A stretch of DNA of 64,000 nt from Patescibacteria group bacterium (GCA_041660305.1 JBAZWO010000001.1:43969-107968), one strand, 5' to 3'; numbered from the stretch's first letter, positions 10,907-62,553 are shown. Program-made: numbers and translations. The notes: generated by a model not told the origin, from the letters alone.

Positions 10907-11377
10907 TTAATACCATTCAGCTACTCCCCCATGATGTGAACAGGTGCCACTGCGGCTTTGGCTAAAACTATAGGTCCCATCTTTGCATTGAGCCGAAGCA
11001 CCAGATGGAACCGAATCTGCTTCATACGGACTAGGTACTGTGTTTCCATACACATTTTGATAGGTGCCATTAGGAGCATAAGTGCTAGTTGAGGTAGTGG
11101 TCGTTTTTTCAGTGGTATTTGTAGATGTAGGTGCAGAAACAGTGGAGTTGCTATTGCCGTTATTTACATTCGCGTTTACTGATTCATTAGTATTCTTATT
11201 TTCGTTACTAATATTAACGTTAGCAGTGCTGCTGCTATTAGTATTAACATTAGCAACGTTTGTGACAGCAGTATTGGTGTATGAAGTAGGTGTGGTAGTA
11301 GTGCAGCCAATAATGGCTAGACTTAGCACTAACAATACAAAAATCGAACGAAATTTATGTAGCCATTGGTTAAACAT
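10907..11377 (-). CDS. lipoprotein with C-terminal DUF3761-like domain
   Basis: Lipobox LAIIGC, an Asn/Thr-rich linker, and the C-terminus CKDGTYSFSQSRSGTCSHHGGVAEWY. Confidence 0.65.
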   Translation of the reverse strand: MFNQWLHKFRSIFVLLVLSLAIIGCTTTTPTSYTNTAVTNVANVNTNSSSTANVNISNENKNTNESVNANVNNGNSNSTVSAPTSTNTTEKTTTTSTSTYAPNGTYQNVYGNTVPSPYEADSVPSGASAQCKDGTYSFSQSRSGTCSHHGGVAEWY

Positions 11378-12629: not shown

Positions 12630-12683
12630 AGAGCCTCAATAATATAACTGTTATTTTTGACAATGTAAAGAGAAAAACAAATA

Positions 12684-12730
12684 CCCCTTCCCTCTTTATA
12701 GGAGGGAAGGGGTTAGGGGTTGGAAGGTAG
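12684..12730. repeat. GC-rich polypyrimidine/polypurine hairpin element (locus 1)
   Basis: CCCCTTCCCTC-tttata-GGAGGGAAGGGG followed by ttaggggttggaaggtag. Confidence 0.8.
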
Positions 12731-17134: not shown

Positions 17135-17479
17135 ATGCCATTTAATGTTATTAAAGAGTTTGAATTTTCCGCCGCTCATTTTTTAACTAAATATCATGGT
17201 AAATGCGAAAACTTACACGGCCATAATTACAAATTAGCCGTTACTGTAAGTGAAAATTTGCAAGCCGATGATATGGTAGTAGATTTTGTAGACCTAAAAG
17301 ACATTGTTAATAATCATGTTATTAAAGTTTTAGATCACACTAATTTAAACGACCGGTTTCCTAACCCAACGTGCGAACTAATTGCTCAATGGATTTTCCG
17401 CACCTTAATACCTCATTTACCGGTTACTCAAGTACAACTTTGGGAAACGTCTACTTCGTCGGTTATTTACCATGAGTAA
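17135..17479 (+). CDS. 6-pyruvoyl-tetrahydropterin synthase / QueD-family protein
   Basis: Reads EFEFSAAHFL..YHGKCENLHGHNYKLAVTV (the CxxxHGH zinc site). It lies directly upstream of folK-folE-folP. Confidence 0.8.
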   Translation: MPFNVIKEFEFSAAHFLTKYHGKCENLHGHNYKLAVTVSENLQADDMVVDFVDLKDIVNNHVIKVLDHTNLNDRFPNPTCELIAQWIFRTLIPHLPVTQVQLWETSTSSVIYHE

Positions 17480-18026
17480 TATTGTATATATCGCCCTCGG
17501 TAGCAATATTGAGCCACGCTTAGATTATCTTACTAAAGCTAAAACTGCCTTATCCAAGCTTGGAATAATTACCAAATCATCTACTATTTACGAAACCGCG
17601 CCGTTAACCTTACCAAATCAATCATCATTAAATTGGTATCTTAATCAAGTTATTTGTTTTGCAGTAAATCAATCACCGCAACAGTTATTATTTACTTTAA
17701 AAAATATAGAACATCAATTAGGCCGTAATCCTAACCATGAACACTGGGCTGACCGAGAAATCGATTTAGATATCCTCTTGTATAATGATGAAATAATTGA
17801 TACGGTATCGTTGCACATTCCTCATTTAGAACTGGCTAACCGCCGGTTTGTGCTGGAACCCTTAGCTGAAATTGCGCCCGATTTAATTGAGCCGAGATCT
17901 AAGAAAACAATTAAAGGGTTGTTAAACGAACTACCTCTCCCCCTAACCCCCTCTCCTAATAGGAGAAGGGGAAAAATTAATTGCATTACTCCCTTTCCCC
18001 TGTTTAGGGGAAAGGGCTGGGGATAG
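17472..18026 (+). CDS. folK: 2-amino-4-hydroxy-6-hydroxymethyldihydropteridine diphosphokinase (HPPK)
   Basis: Reads VYIALGSNI.PR...L..A...L......S.IYET.P....Q..WYLN......REIDLDILLY........L.IPH..LANRRFVLEPL.EIAP. The last ~25 codons read into repeat locus 2. Confidence 0.85.
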   Translation: MSNIVYIALGSNIEPRLDYLTKAKTALSKLGIITKSSTIYETAPLTLPNQSSLNWYLNQVICFAVNQSPQQLLFTLKNIEHQLGRNPNHEHWADREIDLDILLYNDEIIDTVSLHIPHLELANRRFVLEPLAEIAPDLIEPRSKKTIKGLLNELPLPLTPSPNRRRGKINCITPFPLFRGKGWG

Positions 18027-18050
18027 AGGTAGGAATTTTAGAGGAGGGGG
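17931..18050. repeat. composite GC-rich hairpin element (locus 2)
   Basis: Outer inverted repeat CTACCTCTCCCC...GGGGATAGAGGTAG encloses two hairpins. These are CCCCCTCTCC-taata-GGAGAAGGGG and CCCTTTCCCC-tgttt-AGGGGAAAGGG. The core aattgcattact is shared, in inverted orientation, with locus 4. Confidence 0.85.
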
Positions 18051-18070
18051 AAATTCAACACTTATATAAT

Positions 18071-18619
18071 ATGAACCCAAAAAATATTGAACAATTAATC
18101 CAAAAACTAATTACAGAAATCGATCCGCAACCTCAGCGTGAAGGGTTACAAGATACACCGGCGCGAGTAGCGAGAAGCTATGAGAAATTATTCGGTGGTT
18201 ATGCCATGCAGCCGGAAGATTATTTAACATTTTTTGATAGTGAGCATTACGACGAAATGGTAACATGTTTAAATATCGATTTTTATTCCACCTGCGAACA
18301 TCATTTGCTTCCTTTTCATGGCAAAGCTTCCATTGGCTATATTCCAAAAAATAAAATTATCGGCTTATCTAAGTTACCTAGAATTGTAGAAATTTTTGCC
18401 CGCCGGTTGCAAAACCAAGAACGCTTAACTTCGCAAATTACCGAGTGTTTGGATGCAGCCCTACAAGCCAAAGGCATTGGCGTGATTTTAAAAGCCACTC
18501 ATTTATGCATGCAAGCCCGTGGTGTGGAAAAACAAAACACCGTGGTAACCACCTCCGCCTTTCGCGGTTTATTTAAAAATAATATGAATACTAGGAGTGA
18601 GTTTTTGAAGTTAATCTAG
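18071..18619 (+). CDS. folE: GTP cyclohydrolase I
   Basis: Reads REGL.DTP.RVA..Y..LF.GY, then FYS.CEHHLLPF.GKA.IGYIP, then RRLQ.QERLT.QI. Confidence 0.9.
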   Translation: MNPKNIEQLIQKLITEIDPQPQREGLQDTPARVARSYEKLFGGYAMQPEDYLTFFDSEHYDEMVTCLNIDFYSTCEHHLLPFHGKASIGYIPKNKIIGLSKLPRIVEIFARRLQNQERLTSQITECLDAALQAKGIGVILKATHLCMQARGVEKQNTVVTTSAFRGLFKNNMNTRSEFLKLI

Positions 18620-18702
18620 ACCCCACCCCAACCCTCCCCTGCAAGGGAGGGGGTAATTAATTATTCCCCCTCTTGCAGGAGGGGGTAAGGGGGAGGTCTA
18701 GA
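18615..18702. repeat. composite GC-rich hairpin element (locus 3)
   Basis: Outer repeat TCTAGACCCC...GGGAGGTCTAGA encloses CCCTCCCC-tgca-AGGGAGGG and CCCCCTC-ttgcag-GAGGGGG. Confidence 0.85.
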
Positions 18703-18712
18703 ATGTAACCTT

Positions 18713-19531
18713 ATGAAAAAAAATATTAAATTAATGGGCATATTAAATGTAACCCCAGATTCATTTTCAGACGGCGGTAAATTTTTTGGTAGAGACGCAT
18801 TGCAATGCGTCTCTACCACGGTAAAAAATATGGCAGTTGCTGGCGCGGATATTATTGATATCGGTGGAGAATCTTCCAGGCCAGGTTCAGAACCAGTTTC
18901 TGTAACAGAAGAATTAAACAGAGTAGTGCCTGTGTTAAAAGCTTTACACCGTAAGAACACGATATATCGTGTTCTTACATCTATCGACACCTATAAACCA
19001 GAGGTAGCCGCGGCGGCCATTAATTTATGCGCTAAAATGATTAACGATATTTCTGGCTTACGCAATCCACTCATGCGTAAAATAGCCGCTAAAACCAAAT
19101 GCCAAGTGGTAATTATGCACATGTTAGGCGAACCACATAATATGCAAAAACAGCCACGCTATAAAAACGTAGTGTTAGATATTATCAAGTTTTTTCAGCA
19201 ACAAATTAAATTAGCGGAACAAGCTGGTGTTAAAAGGAAAAATATTATTATTGATCCCGGAATTGGTTTTGGTAAAACCGTTAATCATAATCTGGAAATA
19301 CTACGTAACCTAAATAAATTCAAACAGGCTTTCCCTGATTTGTCATTACTAATTGGCGCTTCCAGAAAATCGTTTATCGGTAAATTAACCGGCGCCGCTG
19401 TAAATAACCGCCTGCCCGGTACCCTAGCCGTTCATTTATACGCCGCTCAACACGGCGCAGATATATTACGCGTGCACGATGTAACAGAACACCGGCAGGC
19501 CTTGTTTATTCTGCAAAAAATTATAGCTTGA
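18713..19531 (+). CDS. folP: dihydropteroate synthase
   Basis: Reads MGILNVTPDSFSDGG, then GADIIDIGGESSRPG, then IS.DT......A, then ND.SG, then IIDPGIGFGK, then SRKSFIG. Confidence 0.9.
   Translation: MKKNIKLMGILNVTPDSFSDGGKFFGRDALQCVSTTVKNMAVAGADIIDIGGESSRPGSEPVSVTEELNRVVPVLKALHRKNTIYRVLTSIDTYKPEVAAAAINLCAKMINDISGLRNPLMRKIAAKTKCQVVIMHMLGEPHNMQKQPRYKNVVLDIIKFFQQQIKLAEQAGVKRKNIIIDPGIGFGKTVNHNLEILRNLNKFKQAFPDLSLLIGASRKSFIGKLTGAAVNNRLPGTLAVHLYAAQHGADILRVHDVTEHRQALFILQKIIA
18789..18816. repeat. 28-nt perfect palindrome, copy inside the folP reading frame
   Basis: gtagagacgcattgcaatgcgtctctac is translated in frame as ..GRDALQCVST... The flanks attttttg / c..g..aaaaaatATG match the copy at 28598. 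Confidence 0.85.
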
Positions 19532-25415: not shown

Positions 25416-25569
25416 CCTACCTCACCTCCCGACCTCCTAATTCTACCTCTATCCCCAACCCTTTCCCCTAACCAGGGGAAAGGGAGTAATGCAATTTGAT
25501 TCTTCCCCCTCTCTCCTTAGAGGAGAGAGGGGGTTAGGGGGAGTGAGGTAGGAATTGGGGCGGGAGGTC
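25416..25569. repeat. composite GC-rich hairpin element (locus 4, inverse orientation of locus 2)
   Basis: The outer repeat is CCTACCTCAC..(several)..GTGAGGTAGG. The inner hairpins are CCCTTTCCCC-taacc-AGGGGAAAGGG and CCCCCTCTCTCC-ttaga-GGAGAGAGGGGG. The core agtaatgcaatt is the reverse complement of the locus 2 core. Confidence 0.85.
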
Positions 25570-28208: not shown

Positions 28209-28441
28209 TCATGCGCCGGCGGACGCTTTTCTCTCCTTCCTTCCGCCACTTCCCTATTTGGTTCAGTTAATAGCTGGAACAAAGAGGCAAGAATTTTTTA
28301 TTTTTTCCTTCAAAATGAATAAAAACAAAAAGACCTTCGACCAATTTGTGGTGTATAAACCACGGCCAAAAGCCTTTTCTAGATGAATCATAGCACAATT
28401 TTATTTGACGTCAAGAGCTATATCTATATATACTAACCCTG

Positions 28442-28526
28442 GCTGTATAGGAGTGTCCCGAGTACTCGGGACTGAGAAAACATCCTAACAACTTGATCTG
28501 GGTAATGCCAGCGCAGGGAATATAGC
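28442..28526 (+). promoter_or_regulatory. TPP (THI-box) riboswitch aptamer
   Basis: P1 pairs gctgtat with atatagc. The conserved CTGAGA and ..TTGATCTGGGTAATGCCAGCGcAGGGA elements are present. It lies upstream of the thiamine ABC transporter. Confidence 0.85.
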
Positions 28527-28557
28527 TTAATGGCTTTTTAAATAAACCGTTGGCTAA

Positions 28558-28582
28558 TTCCCTATCTAATTAGGGATTTTTT
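28558..28582 (+). terminator. riboswitch expression-platform terminator
   Basis: TCCCTA-tctaat-TAGGGA followed by TTTTTT. Confidence 0.6.
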
Positions 28583-28597
28583 AATTAATTATTTTTT

Positions 28598-28625
28598 GTA
28601 GAGACGCAGTGCACTGCGTCTCTAC
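28598..28625. repeat. 28-nt perfect palindrome, copy in the thiB 5' leader
   Basis: gtagagacgcagtgcactgcgtctctac differs from the folP copy at two symmetric positions, so the palindrome is preserved. Confidence 0.85.
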
Positions 28626-28636
28626 GCCAAAAAAAT

Positions 28637-29629
28637 ATGAAAAAACTATTTTTTATTCCAATTATGTTACTCCTAGCGCTCGGCGCTGGTTGTAGCAAAA
28701 CAGCAACTTCAACTAACACGCCTGCTCAACCGCCAGAGCTAACGATATATACCTACGATAGCCTGGCGGCTGATTACGGCTTATTGCCAAAAATCATCCC
28801 ACAGTTTGAGCAAGCTAATAACGTCAAAGTAAATGTTGTTACTTTCCCCGATACCGGCACCATGCTTAATCAGTTGTTTTTAGAAAAAAATGATCCTCAA
28901 GCTGATGTGGTGCTGGGTTTAGACAATGTCAACCTAGAAAAAGCCAGCTCTGAACAATTGTTTACTGCTGAATTAACCCCGTTCGATTACGGTTATGTAG
29001 GTTTTGTATATGATTCTGAAGCTATCCAATTTTCTGAGCCTATTAGCTTAATGGATTTAACGAATGAACAATATAAAAATAAAATAATTATTGAACAGCC
29101 CGGTTTGTCTTCACCTGGCACACAGTTATTAATTTGGTCTTATCAAGCTCTCGGCGAAACACAGGCTAAAATATTCTGGGATAAAATGAAAGATAATGTA
29201 TTAACAGTAACACCAGATTGGAACACAGCTTATTACACTATGTTTATGGAAGGCGAAGCGCCTATTGTGCTAAGCTATTTAACCAGTCCGGCTTATCATA
29301 TCGATCAGGAAAATACTGAACGTTATAAAGCTATTCCCATAAAAGAAGGCTATTTAAAACAAACTGAATATGTCGCTATTATTAATAATTCTACCAAACC
29401 AGCCTTAGCTCAACAATGGATAAATTATATGATCTCCAATTCAGTACAAAAAGAAATACCTACCACTCAATGGATGTGGCCAATAGATGCCACCGTGTCA
29501 TTACCTGCCGCTTACAGTAAAATTATTACGCCAATGCCTGAACAAATTATGGCTTTACCGGCTGATAAAATTGCTAAAAATTATGCTACCTGGCTAAATG
29601 ATTGGAATACTACTTTTAACATTAAGTAA
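28637..29629 (+). CDS. thiB: thiamine ABC transporter substrate-binding lipoprotein
   Basis: Lipobox LALGAGC. Has a TbpA/ThiB-like periplasmic binding pattern (LTIYTYDS...VVLGLDN...). Lies downstream of the TPP riboswitch. Confidence 0.8.
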   Translation: MKKLFFIPIMLLLALGAGCSKTATSTNTPAQPPELTIYTYDSLAADYGLLPKIIPQFEQANNVKVNVVTFPDTGTMLNQLFLEKNDPQADVVLGLDNVNLEKASSEQLFTAELTPFDYGYVGFVYDSEAIQFSEPISLMDLTNEQYKNKIIIEQPGLSSPGTQLLIWSYQALGETQAKIFWDKMKDNVLTVTPDWNTAYYTMFMEGEAPIVLSYLTSPAYHIDQENTERYKAIPIKEGYLKQTEYVAIINNSTKPALAQQWINYMISNSVQKEIPTTQWMWPIDATVSLPAAYSKIITPMPEQIMALPADKIAKNYATWLNDWNTTFNIK

Positions 29630-29638
29630 CCCTTAAAA

Positions 29639-29713
29639 GCCCCCTAGCCCCCTAAAGGGGGAATTAACTATTTTTCCCCCTGCCCTTTAGGGAAGGGGGC
29701 TAGGGGGAAAGGC
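29639..29713. repeat. GC-rich hairpin element (locus 5)
   Basis: CCCCCTAGCCCCCT...AGGGGGCTAGGGGG is a 14-bp perfect inverted repeat with inner G/C-tract arms. It sits between thiB and thiP. Confidence 0.85.
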
Positions 29714-37361: not shown

Positions 37362-37405
37362 CCCCCTTCTCCTGGATAGGAGAAGGGGGCTAGGGGGATG
37401 AGGTC
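37362..37405. repeat. GC-rich hairpin element (locus 6)
   Basis: CCCCCTTCTCC-tggat-AGGAGAAGGGGG followed by ctagggggatgaggtc. Confidence 0.85.
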
Positions 37406-56500: not shown

Positions 56501-56562
56501 CCCCTTCTTCTACTCCTAACAACCTACCTCATCCCCAGCCCTTCTCCTCTCAGGAGAAGGGA
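56501..56562. repeat. GC-rich hairpin element (locus 7)
   Basis: ...CCTACCTCATCCCCAGCCCTTCTCC-tctc-AGGAGAAGGG. It is the inverted partner of locus 8. Confidence 0.85.
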
Positions 56563-56627: not shown

Positions 56628-57005
56628 ATGTTTATTCGTCCGCAACAATCTAACACTATTGAATTACAACGCCATTTACAATATATCGCTAAACAATTTC
56701 GTAAAAAACCAACCGTAGCTGAACAAAAATTATGGCAATATTTACGAAATCGTAAACTAAATGGTTTAAAATTTAATCGACAATATCCTATTTATCAATA
56801 CATTGCTGATTTTTATTGCCATGAATACAAACTAATCATTGAGGTTGATGGAGATATTCATAAATTACAACAACAACGTGATGAGAGTCGAGATTTAATG
56901 TTAAAAAAATACGGCTATACCGTATTACGTTTTAATAATGAACAAGTGATAAATAATATTGATTATGTGTTAAAACAAATTAAATCTACTCCCCCTTCTC
57001 CTTAG
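56628..57005 (+). CDS. DUF559 (Vsr-like) endonuclease-domain protein
   Basis: Reads T.AE..LW..LRNRKL.G.KF.RQ.PI..YI.DFYC.E.KLIIEVDG..H........D..R...L...GY.VLRF.N..V. The last codons read into repeat locus 8. Confidence 0.8.
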   Translation: MFIRPQQSNTIELQRHLQYIAKQFRKKPTVAEQKLWQYLRNRKLNGLKFNRQYPIYQYIADFYCHEYKLIIEVDGDIHKLQQQRDESRDLMLKKYGYTVLRFNNEQVINNIDYVLKQIKSTPPSP

Positions 57006-57073
57006 AGGAGAAGGGGGTTGGGGGGATGAGGTAGGATGTTTAGATGGGAAAAGTGGGCTAGGGGGAGAGGTAG
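56991..57073. repeat. GC-rich hairpin element (locus 8)
   Basis: CCCCCTTCTCC-ttaga-GGAGAAGGGGG-ttggggggatgaggtagg, followed by a second half-element gggctagggggagaggtag. Confidence 0.85.
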
Positions 57074-62433: not shown

Positions 62434-62553
62434 ACCTCTATCCCCCCAACCCCTCCCTCCTCTAAATAACCTACCTCACCCCCTAACCCCCTCTCCTCAA
62501 TGAACATCCTACCTCTCTCCCCCAACCCCTCCCTCCTCTCAGGAGGGAGGGGA
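62433..62553. repeat. composite GC-rich hairpin element (locus 9)
   Basis: Three CTACCTC-type ends precede CCCCTCCCTCC-tctc-AGGAGGGAGGGG. The spurious ORF 62379..62570 is its translation. Confidence 0.85.

Follow-up and report, generated by a model that had tools for sequence, protein, structure and literature searches.

The stretch of DNA analysed here (the window, 64,000 nt of a Patescibacteria group bacterium, GCA_041660305.1 JBAZWO010000001.1:43969-107968) carries short perfect palindromes, resembling repetitive extragenic palindromes (REPs), within folP, the gene for dihydropteroate synthase (DHPS), at 18713-19531 on the plus strand, and upstream of a thiB-like gene for a thiamine ABC transporter substrate-binding protein, at 28637-29629 on the plus strand (TIGR01254, 253 bits). 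Copy 1, GTAGAGACGCATTGCAATGCGTCTCTAC, occupies 18789-18816 in folP (site 1) and has the centre ATTGCAAT; copy 2, GTAGAGACGCAGTGCACTGCGTCTCTAC, occupies 28598-28625 in the thiB 5' untranslated region (UTR) and has the centre AGTGCACT. Both are perfect over 28 nt and bear GTAG...CTAC feet. An earlier reading of this DNA (the original prediction) had placed two such palindromes here, differing at one mirror pair, and this was exact: the sole differences are at mirror positions 12 and 17 (T/A versus G/C). With up to 3 mismatches allowed, the two copies are the only matches within the 64 kb, compared with 0 in 100 shuffles, and a mismatch-tolerant scan of the window with the arms, again with shuffles, gave no additional copies and no other match rising above the shuffles. 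Among all perfect hairpins surveyed there was a third perfect, loop-less 28-nt palindrome, GTAAGAACACGATATATCGTGTTCTTAC, at 18951-18978 in folP (site 2), with GTAA/TTAC feet unlike the GT[AG]G/C[TC]AC type. The window thus holds two canonical copies and one variant, none of which is assigned a strand.

The hairpin of copy 1 RNA has an energy of −23.2 kcal/mol, and its base pairing continues to 32 nt (18787-18818). The site-2 palindrome gives −15.6 kcal/mol, and copy 2 gives −20.2 kcal/mol alone and −23.3 kcal/mol with its flanks. For the double-foot copies, with stems of 12-14 bp, the energies lie between −20 and −23 kcal/mol and the z-scores between −6 and −8. Rfam returned no family matching the site of copy 1 or copy 2. 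An intrinsic terminator was considered and rejected: on both strands the T-run comes before the hairpin and the A-run after it, and the terminator scans flag neither strand of the element.

The folP gene is full-length, its product matching Pfam Pterin_bind with 278 bits and TIGR01496 with 325 bits. Copy 1 lies in frame within it and gives the peptide KFFGRDALQCVSTTVKNM, as had been claimed; the palindrome itself codes for G26-T35, GRDALQCVST (codons 18788-18817), and the site-2 palindrome, likewise in frame, for R80-T89, RKNTIYRVLT (codons 18950-18979). Since the reading frame and every conserved DHPS motif are intact across both inserts, the inserts are translated. The conserved DHPS blocks are spaced 21 aa apart in the window FolP versus 18 aa in orthologues and solved DHPS structures, which bears out the spacing of about 18 from which the original prediction had started, and the solved structures show a 3-residue gap against the window FolP at sites 1 and 2. 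The AlphaFold (AF2) model of FolP, with a mean pLDDT of 88, puts site 1 at the start of helix alpha1 (H27-43), right after flexible loop 1; site 2 comprises the end of alpha2, the beginning of beta3 and, between them, a turn on the non-catalytic face. The inserts may affect FolP. Between the window and its relative L001, synonymous sites are conserved at 11 of 13 positions in the site-1 element and at 105 of 184 (57%) in the rest of folP, a higher conservation that is suggestive, with numbers too small to carry weight.

An alignment of 23 FolP homologues, followed by comparison of the DNA of selected loci, revealed filled, empty and decayed versions of both sites. At site 1, the segment that is 3 aa longer and unrelated to all others occurs only in the window and in its nearest relative, P0002 (GRDAINRVST). 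The DNA of the latter, L001, whose folP is 77% identical to that of the window at the amino-acid level, has the same flanks as the window and the element GGTAGAGATGCAATTAATCGCGTCTCTACC, with two uncompensated transitions, while in L245 (P0003) the site is empty. Because the 15 codons of the filled alleles stand in place of 12 unrelated native codons in L245, native codons were lost at site 1, and the suggestion that the element replaced native sequence rather than simply adding to it stands.

At site 2, homologues P0004 (RRDARSHVST), P0010 (RRNAESQISR) and P0013 (RRDAINRVST) carry peptides at the same codon position as the third palindrome of the window. Their DNA shows canonical or decaying GTAGAGACGC-type REPs: perfect in L002 (P0013; CGTAGAGACGCGATTAATCGCGTCTCTACG), with one mismatch in L003 (P0004) and decayed in L004 (P0010). 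L246 (P0006), which is 84% identical to L003, is empty at this site and lacks exactly the 30-nt unit. A FolP tree made after masking of the insert columns shows a scattered site-2 insert, present in P0004 and P0010 and absent in the sisters P0006/P0008 and P0005. Because P0004 and P0010 have in common an unusual GAGATCTC-type centre, the pattern favours one gain followed by exact losses, and repeated insertion is also possible.

In the thiB leader the order is a promoter-like site (28405-28434), a thiamine pyrophosphate (TPP) riboswitch aptamer (28439-28536, plus strand; RF00059, 63.6 bits, above the gathering score), a terminator-like hairpin followed by T6 (28559-28582, plus strand), copy 2 and the thiB ATG. 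The aptamer lies upstream of copy 2 and outside the repeat. The terminator-like hairpin is the likely expression platform of the riboswitch; the hairpin itself, 28559-28576, is the only one that the terminator scans flag and is separate from copy 2. Copy 2 precedes the thiB start as the original prediction had it, ending 11 nt before the ATG, and with its U-run and A-run flanks its pairing can reach to 3 nt short of the AUG. Copy 2 may influence thiB expression.

The arms of copies 1 and 2 are widespread. Genomes, one per species, were scanned for the exact arms GTAGAGACGC-N4-12-GCGTCTCTAC, which gave at least 120 loci, and metagenomes were scanned with the window-type centre (ANTGCANT, both N positions free), which again gave at least 120 loci. 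The form GTAGAGACGC-N8-GCGTCTCTAC is found on at least 120 genome contigs and at least 120 metagenome contigs (together more than 240) from many phyla, and the element is present on 93 IMG/VR viral contigs. The genome matches listed include Bacteroidota, Cyanobacteria (isolates and a complete Calothrix genome among them), Chloroflexota, Acidobacteriota, Planctomycetota, Desulfobacterota, Gammaproteobacteria, Spirochaetes and three bins of the candidate phyla radiation (CPR); among the metagenome matches listed, none of the copies with the window-type centre comes from the organism of the window. The possibility that the folP segment is lineage-specific, raised with the original prediction, therefore did not hold for the element, which occurs across many phyla.

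The 133 copies of the genome set are flanked by unrelated sequence, and direct repeats of 2-9 nt at their flanks, as a target-site duplication would leave, occur only at chance level. Their centres tend to agree within one genome, as expected for within-genome copying, and other genomes hold 2-8 copies inside 8 kb. Thirty-seven of the 133 copies lie in long open frames and use only two stop-free phases, VET..ASL (21 copies) and RDA..VST (16 copies); the third reading phase of the element begins with TAG.

Symmetry extends through the axis of the element. Among 110 eight-nucleotide centres, 77 are entirely self-complementary, and the innermost four bases, which would form the hairpin loop, are symmetric in 82, where chance would give 1 in 16. 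Of the 134 ANTGCANT centres in the metagenome set, 133 are mirror-paired. The loci also hold further perfect palindromes of exactly 28 nt with GTAG/CTAC feet (GTAGAGACGG.., GTAGAGACGT.., GTAGGGGCG.., GTAGGGACGG..), and the arm variants among them are mirror-symmetric. The site-2 palindrome of the window shares its inner 16 nt with one of these, a palindrome on the viral contig L247, and differs from the canonical arms by four mirror-symmetric pairs, for which we estimate a chance probability of about 1e-5. The compensatory changes noticed between copies 1 and 2 are real, and the symmetry of the loop bases points to dyad symmetry at the DNA level and not simply to a stem being kept stable by selection.

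The flanks of the two window copies also match, each having a T-run (T6) on one side and an A-run (A6) on the other, against a background of 0.35% per position, and on this ground a unit of about 50 nt had been proposed. The matching runs are indeed present in both window copies. Only 5 of 266 family copies have them, so that a 50-nt unit is weakly supported and was rejected as a trait of the family. The 5' T-run beside copy 1 consists mostly of native folP codons.

Several further observations concern the repeat on other contigs. The viral contigs, L247-L339, often hold several REP copies each, with centres that are more often asymmetric (AAAATCTT, AAAATATT), and phages or prophages could carry REP copies from host to host. 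At L124 6981-7040, L075 524-573 and L119 212-255, REP copies cap longer perfect hairpins; that in L124 has 16 further paired bases with A-run/T-run flanks and is terminator-like. Perfect pairing of at least 4 nt into the flanks occurs in 9% of copies versus 0.4% expected, which suggests insertion into hairpin loops or co-duplication of the flanks. Finally, L246, a close relative of the lineages with FolP inserts, carries at 11330-11365 the sequence AAAAAAAGAGACGCATTTAACCGCGTCTCTTTTTTT, a REP core (AGAGACGC...GCGTCTCT) that lacks the GTAG/CTAC feet and lies between A7 and T7. Its shape is that of a bidirectional intrinsic terminator, and it may be REP-derived.

The open reading frames (ORFs) of the 120 genome loci listed were clustered without prior assumptions, and besides ABC ATPases and similar common domains a single family, of about 180-250 aa, recurs across taxa. 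It matches NCBIfam NF047646, the REP-associated tyrosine transposase (RAYT), with E = 1e-18 and 67 bits, under the 80-bit equivalog cutoff, and Pfam Y1_Tnp at threshold; its sole match in the PDB is E. coli TnpA_REP (4ER8). Because its motifs, PNH[LFIV]H, WQ and YIxNNP, match those of Quentin et al. 2018, it is assigned to TnpA_REP subclass 2.4 (RAYT group 4). The family has at least 7,983 homologues at E ≤ 1e-10, several of them called 'REP element-mobilizing transposase RayT' by JGI.

With the family profile, a RAYT was found in 10 of the 120 genome loci and 15 of the 120 metagenome loci listed, that is in 25 of 240 loci chosen by the palindrome alone, and in 0 of the 93 viral loci. In 14 of the 15 metagenome loci with a RAYT, the RAYT ORF contains the palindrome; of the 10 genome loci with one, at least 7 have the palindrome in frame past the HUH motif. 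A RAYT in about 10% of loci of 6-8 kb would, by our estimate, be a more than 30-fold enrichment, since a genome typically has one or two RAYT copies (Bertels et al. 2017; Quentin et al. 2018). As side observations, RAYT ORFs contain long tandem peptide repeats that abut an internal REP (L082 4587-5768, with DDGRGLHG about 20 times and PHET repeats; L042 863-1600, with HDS and SNEQ repeats), and the linker after the HUH motif is a hot spot for insertion of REPs and peptide repeats; short DNA repeats in that linker are mentioned by Quentin et al. 2018 (PMC6006769). In L104 1958-6754, nine copies of a sister palindrome, GTAGAGACGGTGTGCACACCGTCTCTAC, lie in and around at least two RAYT-homologous ORFs of one 8-kb locus, two of them in frame at different positions of one RAYT gene (CRDGVHTVST).

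These results identify the palindromes of the window as double-foot REP copies of the RAYT group 4/TnpA_REP subclass 2.4 type, and we consider it probable, at about 0.78, that they are such copies and owe their spread to a RAYT. The GTAG/CTAC feet and arms of the element, its distribution across phyla, its association with RAYTs of the subclass 2.4 type and the filled and empty sites in folP are all observed directly; mobilisation by a RAYT in this particular genome is what these observations suggest. Subclass 2.4 'double foot' REPs are defined by 5' GT[AG]G and 3' C[TC]AC, and REPs inserted in frame inside subclass 2.4 tnpA_REP genes have been described (Quentin et al. 2018, PMC6006769). RAYT group 4 spans 17 bacterial classes, and its flanking repeat has about 14 copies per replicon (Bertels et al. 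2017, PMC5581495), a low number that fits two to three copies in 64 kb.

The likely course of events can be modelled on TnpA_REP of groups 2 and 3, which binds folded single-stranded REP with GTAG as guide and, at a CT or CA dinucleotide on the 5' or 3' side of the hairpin, cuts and rejoins it, the complementary strand not being a substrate (Corneloup et al. 2021). By analogy, the element would fold as a hairpin once the DNA is single-stranded, and the transposase would recognise the GTAG foot and the stem-loop and cut and rejoin at a nearby CT or CA; the element could thereby enter other single-stranded sites as a copy, or leave them, without target duplication. As a perfect palindrome has the same sequence on both strands, either strand could serve as substrate here. 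The element has no stop in two of the three frames on either strand and, with one flanking base per side, makes 30 nt, or 10 codons; after landing in a tolerant part of a gene it would therefore be translated as xRDAxxxVST or VETxxxASL. In folP two landings would have survived, one in the first turns of helix alpha1, where native codons were lost, and one in the alpha2-beta3 turn; a further copy would have landed in the thiB 5' UTR between the terminator of the TPP riboswitch and the start codon. In the perfect-palindrome group, particular loop bases are essential (Corneloup et al. 2021), and if the loop bases of the present element were likewise read by the transposase, symmetry through the axis would be selected.

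Several points weigh against this interpretation. The window holds only two canonical copies, and neither tblastn nor the profile search found a RAYT-like ORF in its 64 kb or in the CPR loci L001-L004, L043, L060 and L081. The cleavage data come from groups 2 and 3. The site-2 copy has no GT[AG]G foot and is nevertheless a perfect palindrome; the symmetry of the loop bases and the constant length of 28 nt are not accounted for by known TnpA_REP behaviour, and the interpretation does not account for the T-run and A-run flanks common to the window copies.

The symmetry could have an alternative or additional source in template switching from arm to arm, which would also account for the site-2 copy. 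We regard it as possible, though improbable, that a DNA-level process copies the arms onto each other through the axis and so keeps exact 28-nt palindromes even in essential coding sequence. Such a process would explain the symmetric loop bases, the mirror variants of constant length and the drift at site 2, where four paired changes have accumulated and the GTAG foot is lost with the palindrome still perfect. This would in turn oblige the encoded peptide to evolve as an antisense-symmetric unit (R/S, D/V and A/C codon pairs). Together with repeated exact gain and loss at the same two folP codons in different Patescibacteria, it would amount to an enzyme being edited site-specifically and reversibly, 10 codons at a time, by a REP system in reduced genomes that possibly have no RAYT of their own.

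A related alternative, which we consider rather unlikely, is that the palindromes are genuine REPs that are immobile relics here, having arrived by recombination or with phage DNA, and that their symmetry is kept by intrastrand template switching ('quasipalindrome correction'). The lack of a RAYT in the window and the small CPR loci agrees with it, as do the 93 viral contigs that carry the element without a RAYT, the non-canonical feet of the site-2 palindrome combined with its four mirror-symmetric pair differences, and the near-complete symmetry of the ANTGCANT centres; genomes with REPs and without tnpA_REP are, moreover, known (Quentin et al. 2018, PMC6006769). However, the arms of copy 1 equal the cross-phylum consensus although the surrounding folP has diverged to 77% amino-acid identity with L001, and two centre variants stand side by side within 10 kb. 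The exact presence or absence of 30 nt in close relatives is at least equally well explained by enzyme-mediated gain and loss, and the RAYT search covered 64 kb of the genome.

It is very unlikely that the palindromes were selected locally as structures, of RNA or DNA, that serve some role themselves, for instance in controlling thiB translation, in stabilising mRNA or as an operator for a protein, the folP and thiB copies then being alike through that shared role. The hairpins are strong, changes in the stem are compensated, and in the riboswitch-controlled thiB leader the pairing of the copy and its flanks comes close to the AUG, all of which would suit such a role. The same 28-mer is found, however, in hundreds of unrelated contexts and phyla, coding and non-coding; its symmetry takes in loop nucleotides that a hairpin does not need, it is neither matched in Rfam nor terminator-like on either strand, and copies decay in orthologues while the gene persists. 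A minimal MITE (miniature inverted-repeat transposable element), consisting of two terminal inverted repeats, joined end to end, of a DDE-type insertion sequence and mobilised in trans by its transposase, would account for a perfect inverted repeat in dispersed copies and was rejected as hardly credible, the test for target-site duplication being negative in the 133 copies, the element being just 28 nt long and the sole enriched neighbour family being the HUH/Y1 RAYT, not a DDE transposase.

The identification of double-foot REPs in this genome provides both a clear name and a likely mechanism for sequence that gene-calling programs translate without notice: the peptides xRDAxxxVST and VETxxxASL, found in many proteins that are hypothetical or strangely extended, are read-through of REPs, and such segments should be masked in alignments and phylogenies. 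It extends REPs of the RAYT group 4 type to Patescibacteria, whose dense, reduced genomes have little intergenic room, and this may be why coding sequence holds two of the three copies. The set of FolP sequences offers a compact natural experiment in which a 10-codon palindromic insert in a TIM-barrel enzyme is seen empty, perfect, with one mismatch and decayed, at two sites, and the strict symmetry about the axis is a testable clue to how subclass 2.4 enzymes recognise or generate their substrate.

The window also contains a second repeat family with about 13 copies in 64 kb, each made of a pyrimidine-rich arm, a loop of 3-5 nt, a purine-rich arm and a YTRGGGG tail, as in CCCCCTTCTCCT-TAG-AGGAGAAGGGGG. 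Its sites include 12683-12713, 17947-18016, 18615-18702, 25459-25533, 29640-29707, 37362-37389, 56539-56561, 56991-57017 and 62526-62552. The family is mostly intergenic; two inverted dimers occupy the spacers between folE and folP and between thiB and thiP, and one pair extends over the 3' end of the folK ORF. It lacks a GTAG tag and looks like a further family of the REP/REPIN-like kind. In the folate cluster of the window (17135-19531), which comprises a PTPS-like gene, folK, folE and folP, only the hairpin dimer lies between folE and folP. In L001 (516-3780), L002 (6705-10801) and L246, pabC (Aminotran_4) lies between these two genes, and L002 and L246 also have pabB. This difference points to gene loss or rearrangement where the repeats now sit. 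Two perfect hairpins at 230-254 and 1033-1059, separated by about 800 nt and sharing the core ATGTGCAAA/TTTGCACAT (GCAATGTGCAATTTTTGCACATTGC, CAGTATGTGCAAAATTTGCACATACTG), resemble paired operator sites.

Among known systems, the element can be compared with the IS200/IS605 insertion sequences (IS608, ISDra2), with which the associated transposase has in common a related HUH/Y1 fold, the recognition of hairpins in single-stranded DNA, a guide tetranucleotide and the lack of target duplication. Those sequences are autonomous and have distinct left and right subterminal hairpins around the transposase gene, whereas here the hairpin is the sole mobile unit seen. The REPIN-RAYT systems of Pseudomonas and Enterobacteria (Bertels and Rainey 2011, PMC3116915) are similar in being non-autonomous GTAG palindromes that form within-genome families with a usually single-copy RAYT. 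REPINs, however, are inverted REP dimers with a spacer, high-copy (hundreds), extragenic and vertically inherited (PMC3116915), while the present element is a single spacer-less 28-mer in low copy with the same arms across phyla.

The original prediction had likened the folP copy to a Rickettsia palindromic element (RPE). The likeness holds insofar as both are dispersed palindromic repeats that lie in frame in coding genes and are translated as an extra peptide in tolerant regions; membership of the RPE family does not, the element being a GTAG double-foot REP linked to RAYTs. Its sequence and tag (the GTAG feet) are unrelated to those of RPEs, a distinction drawn without direct comparison of RPE sequences, and it is found across phyla with an associated HUH transposase family, whereas RPEs are restricted to Rickettsia. 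RPE-1, of the elements that Ogata and colleagues are said to have described in 2000, is reportedly about 100-150 nt long, against 28-30 nt here, and to our knowledge no transposase is associated with RPEs.

Similar, too, are the intragenic REPs catalogued by Di Nocera, De Gregorio and Rocco (2013, PMC3733652), which carry GTAG or CGTC tags and include in-frame cases, sometimes two per gene. In both collections short tagged palindromes are mostly intergenic, with a minority in frame in ORFs, and sub-families are set apart by complementary changes in the stem. Among the published intragenic cases, genes for DNA replication and repair from Proteobacteria, Opitutus and Rickettsia are over-represented, whereas folP is the host gene here, and the published REPs have an unpaired tag at one end where the present element has two paired feet. 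In the same work, Rickettsia RPE-4 and RPE-6 are equated with CGTC-type REPs, which have no associated transposase (PMC3733652). The sequence of the element was not found in the text or supplements of that paper, nor were its peptides in the supplements; a literature search for the literal GTAGAGACGC returned only unrelated primer lists and no paper giving the sequence, and a search for RAYTs or REPs in Patescibacteria or for CPR palindromes gave no relevant report.

The closest match is with the double-foot REPs of subclass 2.4/group 4, which the element resembles in its GTAG/CTAC feet, its long perfect stem, its low copy number and dispersed copies, and its spread over Cyanobacteria, Bacteroidota and many other phyla. 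Unlike the double-foot REPs described, it resides in a metagenome-assembled genome of Patescibacteria (CPR) with no cognate RAYT within 64 kb, two of its copies lie in frame in the gene of a metabolic enzyme, and one variant is without the canonical feet. Our analysis therefore reproduces a described system independently and adds Patescibacteria as a host and folP as a target gene. Its main value lies in a strict dyad symmetry that goes beyond what is known of TnpA_REP, in the series of filled, empty and decayed folP alleles, and in the new host group.

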